Positions 1 to 6,902 of a stretch of DNA of 6,902 nt are shown piece by piece. The DNA comes from a virus (lineage: Duplodnaviria; Heunggongvirae; Uroviricota; Caudoviricetes). The position numbers and the translations under genes were made by a program. Numbering within the stretch: the stretch's first letter is position 1; every line of letters begins with the position of its first letter. Location: the IMG/VR virus record IMGVR_UViG_2711768074_000020, positions 1-6,902 of that record; one strand, 5' to 3'. Below the pieces are notes generated by a model. That model ran no database searches. It worked only from the letters and a program-made list of their open reading frames with translations, and had not been told where the DNA came from.

Positions 1-60
1 GAAAAAGTTCAAAAAATCGCTGCCGGGGAGGAAGGAAACTACCGGATGGAAAGAGTCCCC

Positions 61-555
61 CTAAAGCAGACTGACAGACATCACAAATCCCCGGGTGGGG
101 ATTTGTGTATAAGAGACAGCCTGCAACAGGGTGAGAATGGTTTTTAATTGCTCCGGTGAGAGCTGATTCAGCGGCGTCTGACCAAAGTTATGACGGATAT
201 AATCCGTGACCGCCTGACGATTATTCCCCAGACGTAAATACTCCCCTAATTGCGCTAAAAGCTGGCGGGCAGAATGGCTTTTTTGCGCGGCCAGCAGACG
301 TTGCGCCAGATTATGCTCAGCGGCAGGGAAGTGACGCGAAAGCAGCGGTGAATCTCCCGACAGACCAATATCGTGCCTGATACCCGCCCACAGTTCTGCT
401 CTTTGTTGTTGCGTCAGTGAGGTCACTTTCGTCATTAAGCTTTCCAGCGAAGTACGTTGCTGACTGGATAAAGGCTGATTGCCCGCGCCAGACGGCAGGT
501 TATCTCCCTGACCTGGTGGTTGCCCAGGAGGAGGGCCGGAAATAGGTTGTATCAT
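61..555 (-). CDS. Hypothetical protein with Pro/Gln/Gly-rich N-terminus; 3' end reads into an IS50/Tn5-like terminal repeat, so the C-terminus may be truncated or replaced
   Basis: 164-codon ORF in the supplied track; ATG at 555..553 preceded by AAGGA about 6 nt upstream (minus strand); N-terminal low-complexity PPPGQPPGQG segment followed by helical-looking sequence; the last ~19 codons overlap the IS-end-like 19-mer at 101..119. Family not recognised. Confidence 0.45.
   Translation of the reverse strand: MIQPISGPPPGQPPGQGDNLPSGAGNQPLSSQQRTSLESLMTKVTSLTQQQRAELWAGIRHDIGLSGDSPLLSRHFPAAEHNLAQRLLAAQKSHSARQLLAQLGEYLRLGNNRQAVTDYIRHNFGQTPLNQLSPEQLKTILTLLQAVSYTQIPTRGFVMSVSLL
101..119 (-). mobile_element. 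IS50/Tn5-like 19-bp terminal inverted repeat (terminus at 119; element body would extend left, off the window)
   Basis: Plus strand 101..119 ATTTGTGTATAAGAGACAG matches the Tn5 mosaic end AGATGTGTATAAGAGACAG at 17/19 positions and the IS50 outside end at 17/19 (reverse complement CTGTCTCTTATACACAAAT). It overlaps an 11-bp inverted repeat (82..92 / 97..107). Only one end is visible and no transposase is in the window. Confidence 0.35.
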
Positions 556-751
556 TACGTATCCTTATACCTGAAATCTTCGCAAGTATGCCTGGCCGCG
601 AGATTATGGCACACTTGTCCGGTTAACTCTCGTCTCATACAGGTAACACAAACGTGAAAATCCTTGTTGATGAAAAAAATGATGATTTAATTTATTGATA
701 TAAAAGGATTTATATCAGCACGTGTCCACGTAGTGACCACATTTTCGAGTT

Positions 752-795
752 ACAGATAACACAAAGCCCGTTTTCACGGGCTTTGTGTTATCTGT
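752..795. repeat. Perfect 20-bp inverted repeat with 4-nt loop (ACAGATAACACAAAGCCCGT-TTTC-ACGGGCTTTGTGTTATCTGT)
   Basis: Arms 752..771 and 776..795 are exact reverse complements; it lies 27 nt past the stop of the 823..1716 gene; there is no adjacent U-tract on either strand, so it is not a canonical intrinsic terminator. Confidence 0.6.
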
Positions 796-822
796 GATTG
801 TGGCTAAGCCACATGATTTATG

Positions 823-1716
823 CTATTTCCAGTTACAAGCAGCTTGAAGTGGTTTTAGCGCGTTTGACAGGCCGTTTAAATTGAAAGTTGCACTTACAGG
901 GCTCTCATTATAAGGAGTTATTTTTGTATACATTTTGTTTGAGTTGGCTAGTTTTCGGATGAAATCAATGTCATTACCTTTATAAAAAACAGCCTTTGTA
1001 TCTGTAGATACTAGCCAGTTTCGCTCAACTGCTTTCTGTTTATCAAGACGATAAAGCATGCTGGTTTGTTCAAGGCCTAAATATACATCCCAACTAAGAA
1101 ATACTTCGGTTTTCTTTTCTCGGCAAGCTATAAACAGAGTAGGAGTAACCGCTTCTCCAAATGGAGTTCTGATATAATCATCACTTTCTAACGATAAAAT
1201 TACATTTTTCGAATCATCAATTGGCGATGTAGTAATGGATGTGTGCCATTTTCCTACATCTGTGGCTTTCTCTAATTTTGATTCAGCTTGAACAGCTTTA
1301 TCCTGTGGGAATAGTTTATCGTAGCAGTTTAGTCTGGCTTCTTTATCATTTTCTGCTCGGCATTTAGATATCTCAGAAAGATTTGGTTGCTGAGCCTCTG
1401 TTGTTACTGGCTTTTCCGTTTTAGATTTTGAGTTTACAGATGGAGTAAATGTTGGAGAAAAAAAACGATCATAACAAGATAAACGTCTGTCATCATCTTT
1501 CTCATCAGGGCATTGATCTCTGCTTTCGAATTTTTCAGCAACTTTCGTTCGAGTCGGTTGTATTGACTTATCGTAACAAGAAAGTCTGTCTTTATTATTT
1601 TCTATTGCTCGGCACTGGAGTACTGCATTGAAGTTATTATGTTCAGTTGCTGCGTGAACAGGCAGTACACTAATTGATATAAATGATGCACCTATAGAAA
1701 AAATTATATTTTTCAT
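823..1716 (-). CDS. Secreted protein of unknown function with Sec signal peptide and three tandem C-x11-C-Y-D repeats plus a C-terminal ~150-aa domain
   Basis: 297-codon ORF; N-terminal MKN + hydrophobic core + VHA|A signal-peptidase I site, no lipobox Cys; repeats at residues 35-49, 69-83 and 119-133 (QCRAIENNKDRLSCYDK / QCPDEKDDDRRLSCYDR / KCRAENDKEARLNCYDK); AAGGA RBS 8 nt upstream, overlapping the end of the upstream gene (4-nt intergenic gap); AT-rich. Confidence 0.65.
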   Translation of the reverse strand: MKNIIFSIGASFISISVLPVHAATEHNNFNAVLQCRAIENNKDRLSCYDKSIQPTRTKVAEKFESRDQCPDEKDDDRRLSCYDRFFSPTFTPSVNSKSKTEKPVTTEAQQPNLSEISKCRAENDKEARLNCYDKLFPQDKAVQAESKLEKATDVGKWHTSITTSPIDDSKNVILSLESDDYIRTPFGEAVTPTLFIACREKKTEVFLSWDVYLGLEQTSMLYRLDKQKAVERNWLVSTDTKAVFYKGNDIDFIRKLANSNKMYTKITPYNESPVSATFNLNGLSNALKPLQAACNWK

Positions 1717-1720
1717 TTTG

Positions 1721-2053
1721 TTATCCTTTTGGTTTAGTAAGAAACACTAAAATTCCGATAATGATATCGCCAATAACCCATAAACTTCCAATGGTAATTA
1801 AACCTAAGCCTGTACCAATAACTGCACCGGCTTTTTCGGCATCGGATGTAGCATTATTTATTATTTCACTAGTGCCTCCCAGTCCAACTAAAAGCGTATA
1901 TATCATAAAAATATTAAATAATATAAAAATCCACTTAATGAGCTTTCCAAAAAATGAACGCTTAAGTTTTTTTATTTGTTTACCGCAAGCAGGGCAATAC
2001 AATGCTGAATCGCTCACCTCTTTCTGGCATTCAGGACATTTGATTAATGCCAT
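1721..2053 (-). CDS. Small zinc-ribbon membrane protein (N-terminal CPEC...CPAC ribbon, two predicted TM helices, glycine-zipper-like second helix)
   Basis: 110-codon ORF; ATG at 2053..2051 with AAGGAGG 7 nt upstream; CxxC-x10-CxxC at residues 6-23; hydrophobic stretches about 38-58 and 76-105 with G-x3-G spacing; AT-rich; first gene of an apparent two-gene operon. Confidence 0.65.
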   Translation of the reverse strand: MALIKCPECQKEVSDSALYCPACGKQIKKLKRSFFGKLIKWIFILFNIFMIYTLLVGLGGTSEIINNATSDAEKAGAVIGTGLGLITIGSLWVIGDIIIGILVFLTKPKG

Positions 2054-2107
2054 GTAATCCGCCTCCTTTGGATCAATACGAGTTGATATTTGTTACAAAA
2101 CATTTTG

Positions 2108-2135
2108 ATTTTATCAGATTTTTTTTTATTGATAA
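2108..2135 (-). promoter_or_regulatory. Putative sigma70-type promoter for the zinc-ribbon/secreted-protein operon
   Basis: On the minus strand, TTATCA (2135..2130), 16-nt spacer, TAAAAT (2113..2108), about 55 nt upstream of the ATG; A/T tract upstream. Hexamer matching by eye only. Confidence 0.2.
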
Positions 2136-2197
2136 GTGTCAATTGATTAGCTGGTATAGAGTGAGACATAAAGAAGGTCAGATCTGTATCAGTAGTG

Positions 2198-2233
2198 ATG
2201 CAAAAATCCCACAGTTTCATGGAATTTTTGCAT
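2198..2233 (-). terminator. Imperfect inverted repeat (ATGCAAAAATCC ... GGAATTTTTGCAT), candidate 3'-end structure of the Hok-like transcript or an operator
   Basis: 12/13-bp arms separated by 10-11 nt; lies about 80-120 nt past the Hok-like stop on the minus strand; no clean U-tract. Confidence 0.25.
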
Positions 2234-2283
2234 TTAGAGCCGTGAGATAGGGTGCCTTATCGACCTTACCCTGGCAACCGATT

Positions 2284-2305
2284 GACGGGGGATTACTCCC
2301 CCGTC
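2284..2305 (-). other. Stable hairpin (9-bp stem GACGGGGGA/TCCCCCGTC, 4-nt loop) immediately 3' of the Hok-like ORF
   Basis: Perfect 9-bp GC-rich stem 10 nt past the stop at 2317..2315; hok-family mRNAs are known to carry structured 3' ends. Confidence 0.35.
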
Positions 2306-2314
2306 GCGGTTTCC

Positions 2315-2455
2315 TTACTGCTTACACTGTAAGAACGCCGCAAACTCCGCTCCCCAGAAACTCATCCGTATTTCGCACAGCGAACCGTGCAACATCCAGA
2401 TGATGAGGATTACCGTCACGCAGAACGTGATGGCTGTAAGCGATTTTTGCGACAT
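2315..2455 (-). CDS. Hok/Gef (HokA/PndA-like) type I toxin family small membrane protein, 46 aa
   Basis: Translated by hand from the minus strand: MSQKSLTAITFCVTVILIIWMLHGSLCEIRMSFWGAEFAAFLQCKQ. N-terminal TM segment then W-M-x3-SLCE(I/L)-x8-E-x-AAFL-x-CK, in register with recalled HokA/PndA sequences (two conserved Cys). AAGGAG RBS 8 nt upstream. Absent from the ORF track, which appears to list only ORFs of 60 aa or more. Confidence 0.6.
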   Translation of the reverse strand: MSQKSLTAITFCVTVILIIWMLHGSLCEIRMSFWGAEFAAFLQCKQ

Positions 2456-2645
2456 AGCACTTGCTCCTTTTCCGGAGAGGCGCTAACCTTTCACTTGCTT
2501 AGGGTAGACGGTTAGGGCCTCGGTTAAACAAAAGTGTTTTCCGGGGCCTTTCCACATCTGGCCTTCGGGTATTCCCTCCGACCATCAGCCGAAAGGCACC
2601 CGCGCGTAATCTATCGCTTTTTTGTTACTCCGGCAATTCTGCTTG

Positions 2646-2906
2646 TTAATTCTGAGGTAAAGGCAAACTCATCTGATTGTTTCCCCTGTGTGAAGCTGGT
2701 AGCTCATGCCACGGGATACCTTCTGAAGAGTGAACGCCGGAGGCGTGTTTCGATGTGAATTTATGGAAAGCTTCCAGTGTTGAGAAGCATACGCCGCATT
2801 CCAGATTGTTACACTGGTAATACTTTTGCCGCACGGTGTTTGAATCATTTTCCGGACGACTTGTGCGGATACGGGCAGATGCGCCACAAAGCGGACAACG
2901 GAACAT
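2646..2906 (-). CDS. ogr: Ogr/Delta-family zinc-finger late-gene transcriptional activator (P2 Ogr-like)
   Basis: 86-codon ORF starting MFRCPLCGASARIRTSR...YYQCNNLEC: C-x2-C-x24-C-x4-C zinc-finger spacing and N-terminal MF-x-CPLC signature of Ogr; GGGAGG RBS 5 nt upstream; about 14 aa longer at the C-terminus than the ~72-aa P2 Ogr as recalled. Confidence 0.8.
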   Translation of the reverse strand: MFRCPLCGASARIRTSRPENDSNTVRQKYYQCNNLECGVCFSTLEAFHKFTSKHASGVHSSEGIPWHELPASHRGNNQMSLPLPQN

Positions 2907-3014
2907 AGCGACCTCCCTTAACGTGGTGTTGCCGCTATTCTAGATTGTACGATCCCTAATTCCAACTAACAGCTCGCTCTGTGCGAAGAGTGAAAATTGA
3001 ACTTTCAATAGTTG

Positions 3015-3043
3015 TTGAACTTCCATACATCCAATGTGAAAAT
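3015..3043 (+). promoter_or_regulatory. Putative sigma70-type promoter of the cargo gene
   Basis: TTGAAC (3015..3020), 17-nt spacer, GAAAAT (3038..3043) in a very AT-rich region about 55 nt upstream of the ATG at 3098; alternative -10 CATAAT at 3053..3058. Hexamer matching by eye only. Confidence 0.2.
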
Positions 3044-3097
3044 TCATACGTTCATAATAGTTAAAATTTAAAATATTGTATATCAGGTGAATAAAGC

Positions 3098-4120
3098 ATG
3101 GGAAGAGATATAACGCTGTACCCTAAAAAAGCAACTAGAAACGAACTTAAAAATTACCTTGAAAATTTAGGTTTTAAAAGGTGTAAACATTTGTGGGAAT
3201 GGCCCCAAGGAACGTTGAATTACTCTTGGTTTGATGATACGGACTTCAAATCTACAGATGGAGTTTCGGCTGATATATATCCTGTTTCAAATGACGAACT
3301 ACACATATCTGGTAATAAATGGGCATTGCATGTGCGTAATTTATATAGCGCTAGTTGGCATGATGTAAAAATGCTTAATGATGTTCTAAAAGGCGCACGG
3401 AGTCTTTTTGGTGGAACACTTATAGGTGATTATGGGAAAAATAGGTACGCTCCTCTATGGAAGGATTCTAGTAGTCCGATCAGTCGTGGCATTTCTTCAA
3501 TATTTAATCATGTCCATCATGAGATTTCCGCTGTTAAACATGCCTTACCTGAACCTTCTATTAAATTAAACCTACCGGAAGATGGCGGCTTATCCGAATA
3601 CTTTGATTACATGCAATGTATGGATCCCAGTAGAGTTATATATAATGGATTAGTACCTTTTGCGGTTGCTATGTTTGAATATTTTTTCTCTAGAGCTTTT
3701 CAAATACTTATAAAGTACGATCCTTTCGCAATAGCAAAAAGAACATCGTATAAGCAAAAAGTTGATTTTGATATTCTGCTTGAGATAGAGAAAGGAAATA
3801 TTTCAATAGAAAGTGTTATTGCAAGAAATTACACTTTTCAAAACTTAACCCACCTAAACAAAGCATATAAAGAGTGGCTGGATATAGATGTGAGAGCGAT
3901 TCTTTATAAGAAAAAAAGAATTGGAAAATCAGTTGATTTTCTTGAGAATCGAATTTCTGAAATCATACAATATAGACATGGGATAGTTCATCACTTTGAG
4001 TTGGATAGGACCTTAAATCGGGATGGATATATTCATATATTAGATGCGATAGAAAAAAGCATAATTGAATTTATCCATTACATAGAAGGCAAATACAAAT
4101 TTAAATTAAATGCGTATTAA
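3098..4120 (+). CDS. Hypothetical 340-aa protein, AT-rich moron between D and ogr; helical C-terminal region with an R-x4-H (HEPN-like) motif; candidate abortive-infection/defence protein
   Basis: 340-codon ORF on the strand opposite both flanking phage genes; AGGTG RBS about 8 nt upstream; sampled GC roughly one-third versus over one-half in D and FI (counted by eye); motif YRHGIVHHF at residues 292-300; no recognisable Walker or other catalytic motif in the N-terminal half. Confidence 0.75.
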   Translation: MGRDITLYPKKATRNELKNYLENLGFKRCKHLWEWPQGTLNYSWFDDTDFKSTDGVSADIYPVSNDELHISGNKWALHVRNLYSASWHDVKMLNDVLKGARSLFGGTLIGDYGKNRYAPLWKDSSSPISRGISSIFNHVHHEISAVKHALPEPSIKLNLPEDGGLSEYFDYMQCMDPSRVIYNGLVPFAVAMFEYFFSRAFQILIKYDPFAIAKRTSYKQKVDFDILLEIEKGNISIESVIARNYTFQNLTHLNKAYKEWLDIDVRAILYKKKRIGKSVDFLENRISEIIQYRHGIVHHFELDRTLNRDGYIHILDAIEKSIIEFIHYIEGKYKFKLNAY

Positions 4121-4148
4121 GCAATCAACCTTACATAGGGATGACAAA

Positions 4149-4172
4149 GTCCGCTTCTGACACGGAGCGGAC
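4149..4172. terminator. Putative bidirectional terminator hairpin between the convergent cargo gene and D
   Basis: 9-bp stem (one G·U pair) with 6-nt loop, GTCCGCTTC-TGACAC-GGAGCGGAC; T-rich sequence follows on the plus strand and TTTGTCAT on the minus strand; lies between the stops at 4120 (+) and 4241 (-). Confidence 0.4.
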
Positions 4173-4240
4173 CGTCGTTTATGTTTAATTCTATACTGTA
4201 AACTTGCCAGTTTAAGTCTGAGCTAATATGTCTAAGTTGC

Positions 4241-5350
4241 TCACTCTGTTTCTGCTATCCATTCCGGGATTTTTGCCTCAAGCTCAAGCTGTGTGGTAAA
4301 GCCGCTGTTATCAATGGTGTGCTCGGCTTTTGCAATAATCCAGTCCTGATTATCAATCTCGCTTTTAAAGCCTGTTACCGTGCCATGCATTTCGGGGTAG
4401 AGTTCTGCGCGTCCGCGTGCCAGCATGATGGAGAATGATGCGGCTCCGCGTTGTAGCTGCTGCCACTTTGCCGCCGCTGCGCGTCTTGCTGCCTGCTCGT
4501 TCTGATAAGTCTTGCGTAACACAAACACATTGCCTTCCGCGCCTTCCATATAATCACCTTCACGGCTGCTGCTTTTCTCCTTTTTGGGTTTTGGCGGTTT
4601 GCGGCGTTTCACGCTGACTTTTTTCTTTTTCCCGTAATTAAGATCAAGCCAGTAGGCGCGTACACCCGTATACGCCTCGCGGTCAGCAATGCGGAACTGA
4701 TGGCGATCGCCGCTGCTGCGTGTGATGGCAAACGATGGCAACGGCTGGCCCTGCGCGTTCACGCCACCTCCGGGCATGATGAATAACAGATTACCGCTTT
4801 TTACCGTGGTGATTGCGCCCAGCATTTCCGCCATGCGCGTAAGGAAGGACATGTCGCTTTCTTCGGTCTGGTCGGCGTGGTCGATTTCGATATCCATCAG
4901 CATTTCGCTGATTTGCGGTTTCAGACCATACCGATGAGCGATGGCGGATACCACACGCTCAACGGTCACATCATGCCAGGACACCTCACGTTTAACGTTA
5001 AATTCATCCCGAAAATCTGCGCTTCTGGCTGAAACAGTCAGCCTGTCCGGCGGTCCTTCGTGAGCGATTTCATCAACAATGTAAGTGCCTTTTTCTGTCA
5101 GCGGTTCCCCTTTCCAGCCAATGAGAACCGTCAGACGCGCGCCCCGTGGCGGTAGCTGCAACTGGCCATCGGCATCATCCAGCGTGATGGTGAGCTGGTC
5201 CGCCTCAAATCCCCGGTTGTCGGTCAGTGACAGGTTCATCAGGCGTTCTGCCACGCCGGACAGCGTTTTACCCTCGGCGAGAATATCAAAATCCGGCATT
5301 TTCACGGGGTCTGTGCCCTGACTGAGCAATTGCATGGTGGTGTCGGTCAT
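4241..5350 (-). CDS. D: P2 gpD-like tail protein (late control gene D / gp27-VgrG-like baseplate hub family)
   Basis: ORF track gives 4241..5482, but the ATG at 5350 has a strong GGAGGGAG Shine-Dalgarno 3 nt upstream, whereas the 44-codon upstream extension is Ser/Thr/Arg-rich with no RBS. The 369-aa product is close to P2 gpD in size; motifs such as ESDMSFLTRMAEMLG resemble the gp27/VgrG N-terminal hub fold; same strand as and adjacent to ogr. Confidence 0.7.
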   Translation of the reverse strand: MTDTTMQLLSQGTDPVKMPDFDILAEGKTLSGVAERLMNLSLTDNRGFEADQLTITLDDADGQLQLPPRGARLTVLIGWKGEPLTEKGTYIVDEIAHEGPPDRLTVSARSADFRDEFNVKREVSWHDVTVERVVSAIAHRYGLKPQISEMLMDIEIDHADQTEESDMSFLTRMAEMLGAITTVKSGNLLFIMPGGGVNAQGQPLPSFAITRSSGDRHQFRIADREAYTGVRAYWLDLNYGKKKKVSVKRRKPPKPKKEKSSSREGDYMEGAEGNVFVLRKTYQNEQAARRAAAAKWQQLQRGAASFSIMLARGRAELYPEMHGTVTGFKSEIDNQDWIIAKAEHTIDNSGFTTQLELEAKIPEWIAETE

Positions 5351-5507
5351 CTGCTCCCTCCCTGTGTGGCATGGTCGCATGTGCGTGCGGAGGGGGTTAC
5401 TGCTTTTTGTTGTCGCCGTGGCGGGAGAACGGCGCAGGGGTGAGATTACGCGCGTGGTGGGTGATGATTGTTGCCGAATCATTTAACGGATACAAGGGGC
5501 TGAAGCT
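5351..5507. promoter_or_regulatory. Divergent intergenic region between D (-) and FI (+), presumably carrying late promoter(s)
   Basis: 157-bp GC-rich spacer between two divergent start codons, each with its own RBS (AGGGG 8 nt upstream of the FI ATG). No clear TGT-N12-ACA Ogr-type dyad was seen by eye. Confidence 0.3.
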
Positions 5508-6692
5508 ATGAGTGAAACTCGTTTTCATGGTGCCCGTGTTACGGAAAATACCGACCTGGTAACAGCGATTAACGATGTTGATTCCAGCGTTATCGGTATC
5601 GTGGTAACGGCGGATGATGCGGACGCGAAGCTGTTCCCGCTGAACAAGCCCACACTGCTGACCCGCGTCAATGACGTGCTGGGAAAATGCGGAACAACGG
5701 GGACGCTTTATCGTGCGCTTAAGGCCATCGCAGACCAGGTGAGCACAAAGGTGATCGTCGTTCGCGTGGCTGAACACAAAGAAGAAGACGAAAAGACGCA
5801 GGATCAACTGGTTATCGGTGGTTCTGAGGATGACGGCAGCTATACGGGGATGTATGCGCTGCTTGTTGCAGAGCAGGATGAAAGCATCGGATACCGTCCG
5901 CGTATTCTGGCCGCGCCGGAGCTGGACACGGAGGCGGTGACAAAATCCCTGTGCGTGATTGCGGGTAAACTGCGCGCATTTGTGTATGCCTCATGTCACG
6001 GCTGTAACACGATGGCTGAAGCGATTACCTACCGCCAGAAATTCAACGAACGTGAAGTGATGCTCTTATGGCCGGACTTCATCGCCTACAACCCGAAAAG
6101 TGGCGAAAACGAAACGTTCCCCGCGCCTGCTTATGCGTGCGGCCTTCGTGCGTACATTGACCATGAGCAGGGCTGGCACAAATCGCTGTCCAACGTTCCG
6201 GTTAAAAATGTGCTGGGGATGTCGAGGCATGTGTTCTGGTCGTTGCAGGCCGAAGACAGCGATGCCAACAGCCTCAACAACAAAGAAATCACGACCATTA
6301 TTCGTCGCAACGGGTTCCGCTTCTGGGGCAACCGCACACCGGAAACGAACGCCTACATTTTTGAGGTGTATACCCGAACCGCACAGGTGCTGGCTGATTC
6401 AATTGCGGAAGCGCAGTTTGAAACCATCGACAGTCCACTGACGCCTGCGAACGTGAAGGATGTTATCAGTGCCATCAGGGCAAAACTGGATTCACTGGTT
6501 ACTGCCGGGAAACTGATTGGCGCAGAGTGCTGGTATGACGTGGTGGATAACAGCACCACGGATTTACGTCAGGGGCGTGTGCGTATTCGCTACAAATATA
6601 CGCCCGTTCCGCCACTGGAAGACATGGAGCTTTACCAGACGTTTACTGATGAATACTTTGAACCCGCATTTGCGGTGCTGGGAGGTGCCTGA
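5508..6692 (+). CDS. FI: P2 FI-like contractile tail sheath protein
   Basis: 394-codon ORF; motifs FPLNKP, GFRFWGNRT, YTRTAQV, HEQGWHKSLSNV and YKYTPVPPLED match the recalled P2-family tail sheath; the stop overlaps the next start (TGATG). Confidence 0.85.
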   Translation: MSETRFHGARVTENTDLVTAINDVDSSVIGIVVTADDADAKLFPLNKPTLLTRVNDVLGKCGTTGTLYRALKAIADQVSTKVIVVRVAEHKEEDEKTQDQLVIGGSEDDGSYTGMYALLVAEQDESIGYRPRILAAPELDTEAVTKSLCVIAGKLRAFVYASCHGCNTMAEAITYRQKFNEREVMLLWPDFIAYNPKSGENETFPAPAYACGLRAYIDHEQGWHKSLSNVPVKNVLGMSRHVFWSLQAEDSDANSLNNKEITTIIRRNGFRFWGNRTPETNAYIFEVYTRTAQVLADSIAEAQFETIDSPLTPANVKDVISAIRAKLDSLVTAGKLIGAECWYDVVDNSTTDLRQGRVRIRYKYTPVPPLEDMELYQTFTDEYFEPAFAVLGGA

Positions 6693-6902
6693 TGGCTGTG
6701 CCAAAACATCTTCGCTTTTTTACGCTGTTTGTGGATGGTGAAAACGAAGTGGGTAAGGTGACGTCCGTCACTCTGCCCAAACTGACGCGCAAAACCGACA
6801 GCTACCGGGGGGGCGGCATGATGGGTGCGGTAAGTATTGATCTCGGTCTGGACGACTCCGCGCTTGATGCGAGCTTTGTCATGGGGGGCGCAGTTCGTGA
6901 GC
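6692..6902 (+). CDS. FII: P2 FII-like tail tube protein (5' portion; runs off the window end)
   Basis: Translated by hand: MAVPKHLRFFTLFVDGENEVGKVTSVTLPKLTRKTDSYRGGGMMGAVSIDLGLDDSALDASFVMGGAVRE, matching the recalled P2 FII N-terminus (VTLPKLTRK, YRG-G-M, DLGLDD); GGAGGT RBS 5 nt upstream; no stop before position 6902. Confidence 0.8.
   Translation, partial: MAVPKHLRFFTLFVDGENEVGKVTSVTLPKLTRKTDSYRGGGMMGAVSIDLGLDDSALDASFVMGGAVRE

Follow-up and report, generated by a model that had tools for sequence, protein, structure and literature searches.

Structure of the flk locus

The window, which is the whole stretch of DNA analysed here (6902 bp), is the entire draft contig CYGG01000122.1 of GCA_001284325.1 and is on record in two samples. 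Its left end carries the terminal part of an insertion sequence (IS), ISEc13, directly joined to the 5' part of flk, which encodes the flagella biosynthesis regulator Flk (Table 1). When window 1-700 was compared by megablast with 5426 complete E. coli genomes, all of them matched, only from base 120 on, and the feature found there was flk. Several E. coli strains have a flk that is 100% identical in DNA sequence over window 120-700. The similarity to flk begins exactly at base 120, directly after the terminal CAG of the IS (CAG/C), and an alignment of the window with the ISEc13 end and the intact flk locus of strain PEC240 assigns the bases through 119 to the IS and those from 120 on to flk. 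Strain PEC240 has an intact flk at the same place and is otherwise 100% identical to window 556-6902; its uninterrupted site reads cttccctt/CCTGCAACAgggtgag or, with the arm of the presumed target marked, cttccctt/CCTGCAACA/gggtgag.

Table 1. Features at the left end of the window (ME, Tn5 mosaic end; OE, IS50 outside end)
Position	Strand	Feature	Basis
1..119	- (transposase sense)	Terminal 119 nt of ISEc13, transposase-proximal (OE-like) end; cut off at base 1 by the contig end	0 mismatches to ten copies
61..555	-	Chimeric ORF, 164 aa: Flk residues 1-145 and 19 IS-encoded residues AVSYTQIPTRGFVMSVSLL; stop inside the IS	Protein comparison
82..107	-	Subterminal hairpin, arms 82-92 and 97-107 (CACAAATCCCC / GGGGATTTGTG), 4-nt loop; overlaps the inner 7 nt of the terminal repeat	Perfect 11-bp inverted repeat (seen in L001, window +3000)
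101..119	-	Terminal inverted repeat CTGTCTCTTATACACAAAT, 19 bp; presumed transposase binding and cleavage site	ME/OE matches and IS50-subgroup consensus
120..128	.	Predicted right-hand copy of the target-site duplication, CCTGCAAC(A), first flk bases beside the IS; 8 or 9 bp	flk starts at 120; 8-11 bp repeats in other copies
120..555	-	5' part of flk, comprising codons 1-145 and first base of codon 146	100% DNA identity
129..135	.	G-rich arm GGGTGAG of the preferred ISEc13 target; pairs with TTCCCTT across the insertion point in intact flk	GGG frequency and fold

The open reading frame that spans the junction had been described in the initial annotation as a truncated or fused gene running from host DNA into a mobile element, and this is what was found, the host gene being flk and the element ISEc13. 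In comparison with the intact 331-aa Flk, 145/145 residues of the product are identical, and the identity ends at residue 145 instead of continuing to the C-terminus. Of the 339 positions of the NCBIfam Flk model, the product covers only 1-149, and its score of 226.8 bits is below the cut-off of 353. The C-terminus of intact Flk is a hydrophobic anchor (PALWILLVAIILMLVWLVR), which is absent from the chimeric product. A full-length Flk is recognised by an equivalog match above the cut-off together with this C-terminal anchor; here both are lacking, and the gene is a truncated flk, not an intact one.

The visible 119 nt show no difference from annotated ISEc13, and only the site in flk is absent from the 5426 complete E. 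coli genomes, none of which contains the flk/ISEc13 junction (the best coverage, 83%, corresponds to window 120-700 only). The exact 41-mer spanning the junction was not found in species-representative genomes either.

Terminal inverted repeat

The sequence at the end of the IS part is ATTTGTGTATAAGAGACAG on the given strand, with the reverse complement CTGTCTCTTATACACAAAT. The latter matches the Tn5 mosaic end (CTGTCTCTTATACACATCT) at 17/19 positions, with mismatches at positions 17 and 18, and the IS50 outside end (CTGACTCTTATACACAAGT) also at 17/19, with mismatches at positions 4 and 18; both reference sequences were verified against the oligonucleotide table of PMC3347997. When up to three mismatches were allowed, this was the sole match to either end in the window, while 0/200 shuffles matched ME and 1/200 matched OE. 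The inside end (IE) of IS50 had no match at the same threshold anywhere in the window. The repeat also fits the end consensus of the IS50 subgroup, CW------Y---CA-A--W (PMC2266710). Its outermost CAG lies at 117-119, which places the terminus of the element at 119 and its body to the left.

The initial annotation had interpreted this 19-mer as an IS50/Tn5-like terminal repeat that resembles both ends beyond chance, terminates an element extending leftwards and is flanked by DNA unlike the IS50 interior. All of this was borne out: the scans and the shuffles agree on the resemblance, the position of the CAG agrees with the orientation, and the adjoining interior is that of ISEc13, whose transposase is a homologue of the Tn5 transposase over its full length. 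IS50 proper, or Tn5, was considered as the source and ruled out, as OE is matched at only 17/19 positions and window 1-100 matches ISEc13 and not IS50.

Identity and distribution of ISEc13

Window 1-119 is identical (119/119) to the last 119 nt of ISEc13 in 10/10 E. coli genome copies compared base by base. In E. coli E2348/69, as in many other strains, NCBI PGAP gives the name ISEc13 to the neighbouring transposase, and in every copy inspected the adjoining CDS was annotated as 'IS4-like element ISEc13 family transposase'. The element is widespread: a query with window 1-125 found matches in 1376 of the 5426 complete E. coli genomes, in up to 31 places per genome, as well as in 336 plasmid records of Escherichia, Shigella, Salmonella and Klebsiella. 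Judged by this sequence identity, the 19-mer is the genuine outer end of ISEc13, a catalogued IS50 relative of the IS4 family. Since the element is catalogued, the finding counts as already known; the ISEc13 membership itself is not new, and the insertion in flk is an ordinary event. In the literature searched, ISEc13 was named only in passing.

Full copies of ISEc13 comprise 1550 bp, and eight of the ten genome copies inspected have this full length, the two others being 1500 bp long with a frameshifted transposase. Full copies are bounded by CTGTCTCTTGATCAGATCT at the distal end and by CTGTCTCTTATACACAAAT at the transposase-proximal end. The distal end is identical at 19/19 positions, both GATC (Dam) sites included, to the inside end of IS50 described in the Tn5 literature. 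This IE sequence serves as a Tn5-end primer (PMC3944678).

As in IS50/Tn5, there is a single transposase ORF (457 aa), which starts near the OE-like end, 165 nt inside it, and stops inside IE. The encoded protein could be aligned with the Tn5 transposase over residues 6-453 (E 5.5e-84), and the DDE and YREK positions are kept in this alignment (EDTT, CDREADI, YxxRWxIEExHKAWK). It also passes the NCBIfam model NF033590 'IS4 family transposase' with 514 bits (cut-off 160). Full ISEc13 copies from genomes therefore carry the single-ORF DDE transposase with the Y-(2)-R-(3)-E-(6)-K signature by which the IS4 family and its IS50 subgroup are recognised. The size of 1350-1550 bp, the 5'-CT ends and the end consensus that define the subgroup (PMC2266710) are likewise found in ISEc13, in the last two cases at both ends. 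Size, ends and transposase being as in the IS50 subgroup, ISEc13 is a natural relative of IS50, and its terminus is neither that of IS50 nor a synthetic end.

The resemblance to Tn5 has its limits. The OE-like end of ISEc13 has T at position 4, like the engineered mosaic end, whereas no similarity to IS50/Tn5 was seen in the interior DNA, for which BLAST reported ISEc13 only. In the alignment with the Tn5 transposase, no Met of the ISEc13 protein is aligned with the start of the Tn5 inhibitor protein. Further differences concern the insertion itself: ISEc13 strongly prefers inverted repeats made of a C-run and a G-run, and its target duplications vary in length from 8 to 11 bp, in contrast to the fixed 9 bp of IS50/Tn5. 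A promoter scan of one full ISEc13 copy detected no sigma-70-like site.

Several other features of ISEc13 copies were observed. At the distal end (L001 1570-1602), a perfect 13-bp inverted repeat (GTCTCTTGATCAG / CTGATCAAGAGAC) is formed with the adjoining interior, and the stop codon of the transposase lies within it. On plasmid pMAR2 of E2348/69 (L012), ISEc13 occupies positions 370-1919 and lacks a flanking direct repeat, an indication that this copy was rearranged or recombined with another one after it had inserted. In 11 metagenome loci (L121 and ten others), about 50 nt of the ISEc13 end are followed by sequence beginning TTGAACCGCCCCGTGTTTCCTGGAGA. The latter resembles an IS3-family terminus, and in these interrupted copies another IS probably landed inside ISEc13.

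Target choice and duplication length

Direct repeats located directly beside complete ISEc13 copies measure 8, 8, 8, 9, 9, 10, 10 and 11 bp, a range that overlaps the value of 8-9 bp given for the IS50 subgroup and goes beyond it. The duplication of 9 bp expected in the initial annotation is thus one of the lengths that occur in other copies, although it is not a rule. Empty sites were rebuilt for the 11-bp case (in dgcJ) and for one of the 8-bp cases (in the ygdR-ygdQ spacer), and both were 100% identical to other genomes along exactly 300 nt, which shows that the variable duplication lengths are real.

In E. coli genomes (L001 1560-1569 and 3120-3129; L002, L005-L011), the duplications are bracketed in the form CCCY/duplication/RGGG. 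The left C-rich arm is complementary to the right arm, as in tccccc/GCTTCACGC/ggggga. Of 26 unique right flanks of ISEc13, collected from genomes and from metagenome contigs, 88% carry GGG at a distance of 8-15 nt from the end, compared with 5% of random positions. At 16 rebuilt sites of ISEc13 and its relatives, on average 4.6 of the six positions beside the duplication are complementary (1.5 in controls), and the mean folding energy is -14.9 kcal/mol, as against -6.3 +/- 3.6 kcal/mol in controls. The rebuilt flk site, which has CCC on one side and GGG on the other, folds at -11.4 to -11.7 kcal/mol relative to the same control mean; it fits the pattern, less perfectly than the best sites.

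A marked specificity for symmetric or palindromic targets is shared with two other IS4-family elements, IS231A and ISRm22, which differ from ISEc13 in belonging to other subgroups (IS231 and IS4Sa) and in having other end sequences. Hallet et al. reportedly found in 1994 that IS231A prefers GGG(N)5CCC. All nine copies of ISRm22 are located in REP palindromes (PMC1525189). In the review of the IS4 family, nothing is said of terminators or hairpins as targets of the IS50 subgroup. No description of the targeting rule, the variable duplication or the built-in terminator considered below was found in the literature searched, ISfinder lying outside this search.

Marine relatives and the subterminal hairpin

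The exact 23-mer GGGGATTTGTGTATAAGAGACAG of the ISEc13 end occurs in 108 stretches of species-representative genomes (L013-L120), mostly of marine Gammaproteobacteria (Neiella, Vibrio, Shewanella, Alishewanella, Aliagarivorans, Pseudoalteromonas, Photobacterium and Aeromonas). The transposases of these relatives are about 50% identical to that of ISEc13, and the other end of the elements is CTGTCTCTTGATCACAAGT. Complete copies lie in the apex of GC-rich hairpins and are flanked by duplications of 8-12 bp, for example caaacccc/GGTAAACC/ggggtttg. A run of at least four T at 11-28 nt from the end was present in 71% of 102 unique right flanks of the relatives, compared with 8% of controls. GC-rich hairpins are the targets of the group, and in the marine relatives they look like intrinsic terminators. 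An orientation bias of the insertions relative to such terminators was considered and dropped: about half of the few left flanks available carry A-runs, and hence no bias is claimed and the targets may simply be symmetric.

Another hairpin lies within the element, close to its transposase-proximal terminus. Folded as RNA, the 125-nt end (minus strand of window 1-125, which is the read-in strand) has a minimum free energy of -43.9 kcal/mol (z -3.9) and includes the subterminal hairpin listed in Table 1. In 22/22 aligned sequences (21 relatives and ISEc13), a hairpin is found at nt 19-42 from the terminus on the transposase-sense strand. Five of its pairs are nearly invariant and four covary, each of these showing 10-13 double (compensatory) changes. 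A run of 6-8 T directly follows the hairpin in the 21 relatives (nt 19-50 from the terminus as a whole), whereas ISEc13 has no adjoining T-run, about 67 extra nt being located between the hairpin and the T-run. Hairpin and T-run of the relatives together have the form of a putative intrinsic terminator facing into the element, which would block host read-through into the transposase gene. As flk and the transposase gene have the same orientation, flk transcripts would read into the ISEc13 end.

Taken together, ISEc13 and the relatives sharing the 23-mer may form a distinct Tn5-like clade that is characterised by arm- or structure-directed targeting and by an inward terminator; that this proposal should be both right and new is possible rather than probable, and it is put forward tentatively. 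In such a clade, the points of strand transfer may track the arms, with duplications of 8 to 12 bp as a result in place of the fixed 9 bp of Tn5. If true, this would be a natural relative of the Tn5 transposase that chooses hairpin- or terminator-like targets and tolerates variable strand-transfer spacing, and it would offer a useful comparison for understanding or re-engineering the target choice of the tagmentation enzyme.

Probable origin of the flk junction

Very probably, an ISEc13 copy transposed into the flk coding region of this E. coli isolate, which would explain the observations at the locus. If it acts like its homologue in Tn5/IS50, the DDE transposase would bind both 19-bp ends, excise the element in a cut-and-paste manner and join its 3' ends to staggered positions of the target, leaving a short duplication such as the 8-11 bp repeats seen at other ISEc13 copies. 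The insertion would split flk after codon 145, and the remaining ORF would run 19 codons into the IS. The IS being multicopy, the short-read assembler presumably could not cross it and stopped, so that the contig ends 119 nt inside the element. Because the contig ends there, the transposase, the second repeat and the duplication are absent from the window. Similarly, in draft genomes of many other bacteria contigs end 70-250 nt inside elements with the same terminus. The insertion in flk rests on this one assembled contig, with the second junction and the full element lying outside it. Other contigs of the assembly are expected to carry the transposase gene as well as the opposite end of the element and the second duplication copy, and the far junction is predicted to read ...GGAATAACCATCTTCCCTT followed by CCTGCAAC(A) and CTGTCTCTTGATCAGATCT or, in other words, the inside end CTGTCTCTTGATCAGATCT would abut ...AACCATCTTCCCTT and then CCTGCAAC(A).

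The contig displays just 119 nt of the element, and it is conceivable that flk holds only a truncated or rearranged remnant of ISEc13, for instance a solo end or a copy that another element has interrupted. Defective copies do exist, as exemplified by the 1500-bp frameshifted variants and by the 11 metagenome loci that break at about 50 nt. However, the 119 nt match intact 1550-bp copies without any difference and extend well beyond the ~50-nt breakpoint, most of the inspected genome copies (8/10) are full length, and a multicopy full-length repeat breaks a contig at just such a position. A remnant is therefore considered improbable.

Still less probable is an assembly chimera, in which an ISEc13 end from elsewhere was misjoined to flk and no insertion took place. 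The ends of insertion sequences are classic places of misjoining in short-read assemblies, and the junction is found in none of the complete E. coli genomes; nevertheless, the two sequences meet precisely where the terminal repeat has its last base and not in a shared k-mer, and the flk site carries the sequence features that ISEc13 prefers. The switch at the last base of the element and the likeness of the site to preferred ISEc13 targets make a misjoin unlikely, and the same contig has been recorded twice, in separate samples. A laboratory origin, as a remnant of a Nextera/mosaic-end adapter or as an engineered mini-Tn5/EZ-Tn5 insertion, might be suggested by the 17/19 match to ME near a contig end, but it has practically no probability left, as a synthetic ME or OE would give 19/19 and not two mismatches to each, and as the 19-mer is located 100 nt inside the contig and not at its tip, those 100 nt being natural ISEc13 and not adapter or IS50. 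The alternative of adapter-derived or chimeric sequence, which the initial annotation had kept beside the insertion, can accordingly be abandoned.

An insertion of ISEc13 in flk explains the position of the contig end and rules out contamination with adapters. The 164-aa 'gene' is a disrupted flk, and its annotation should be that of a pseudogene together with a partial mobile element. With the C-terminal membrane anchor lost, Flk is most likely inactivated, and the isolate is probably without functional Flk. Flk is described as having a C-terminal membrane anchor, and Salmonella strains deleted for flk alone swim nearly as the wild type (PMC13344023). The loss of Flk in Salmonella only subtly affects the timing of flagellar secretion. 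Given this near-normal swimming of flk deletions, the expected phenotype would be mild. The gene yfcJ, which lies beyond the 3' end of flk, is convergent to it, and no polar effect is therefore expected.

Neighbouring genes

Beside flk there is an island (window 823-6902; L003 3268-12347), which encodes a TagO/VasI-like protein, a zinc-ribbon membrane protein and a P2-like tail module. It was present at a coverage of at least 80% in only 60 of the 5426 complete E. coli genomes. The order in P2 is colinear, whereas in the module of the island ogr and gpD are located on the strand opposite to the genes of the sheath, the tube, gpE and the tape measure.

Window 2315-2455 (minus strand) contains an ORF for a 46-aa toxin of the Hok/Gef family; the corresponding, identical region of PEC240 carries the same annotation, and the ORF matches Pfam HOK_GEF weakly. 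An Rfam scan of the window returned no family, and no Sok-type RNA, at gathering score. Between the ogr-like and gpD-like genes, a hypothetical protein of 340 aa is encoded (window 3098-4120, plus strand). It has a sub-threshold match to RiboL-PSP HEPN (E 1.2e-4; 22.5 bits, cut-off 28.4) and no NCBIfam match, and PADLOC gave no match for this protein or for the TagO-like, zinc-ribbon and Hok proteins. The 340-aa protein may represent a prophage-borne accessory or defence gene. Finally, a perfect 19-bp inverted repeat (ACAGATAACACAAAGCCCG / CGGGCTTTGTGTTATCTGT, with a 6-nt loop) is located in the spacer between flk and the TagO-like gene (window 752-795), just downstream of the stop codon of the latter.
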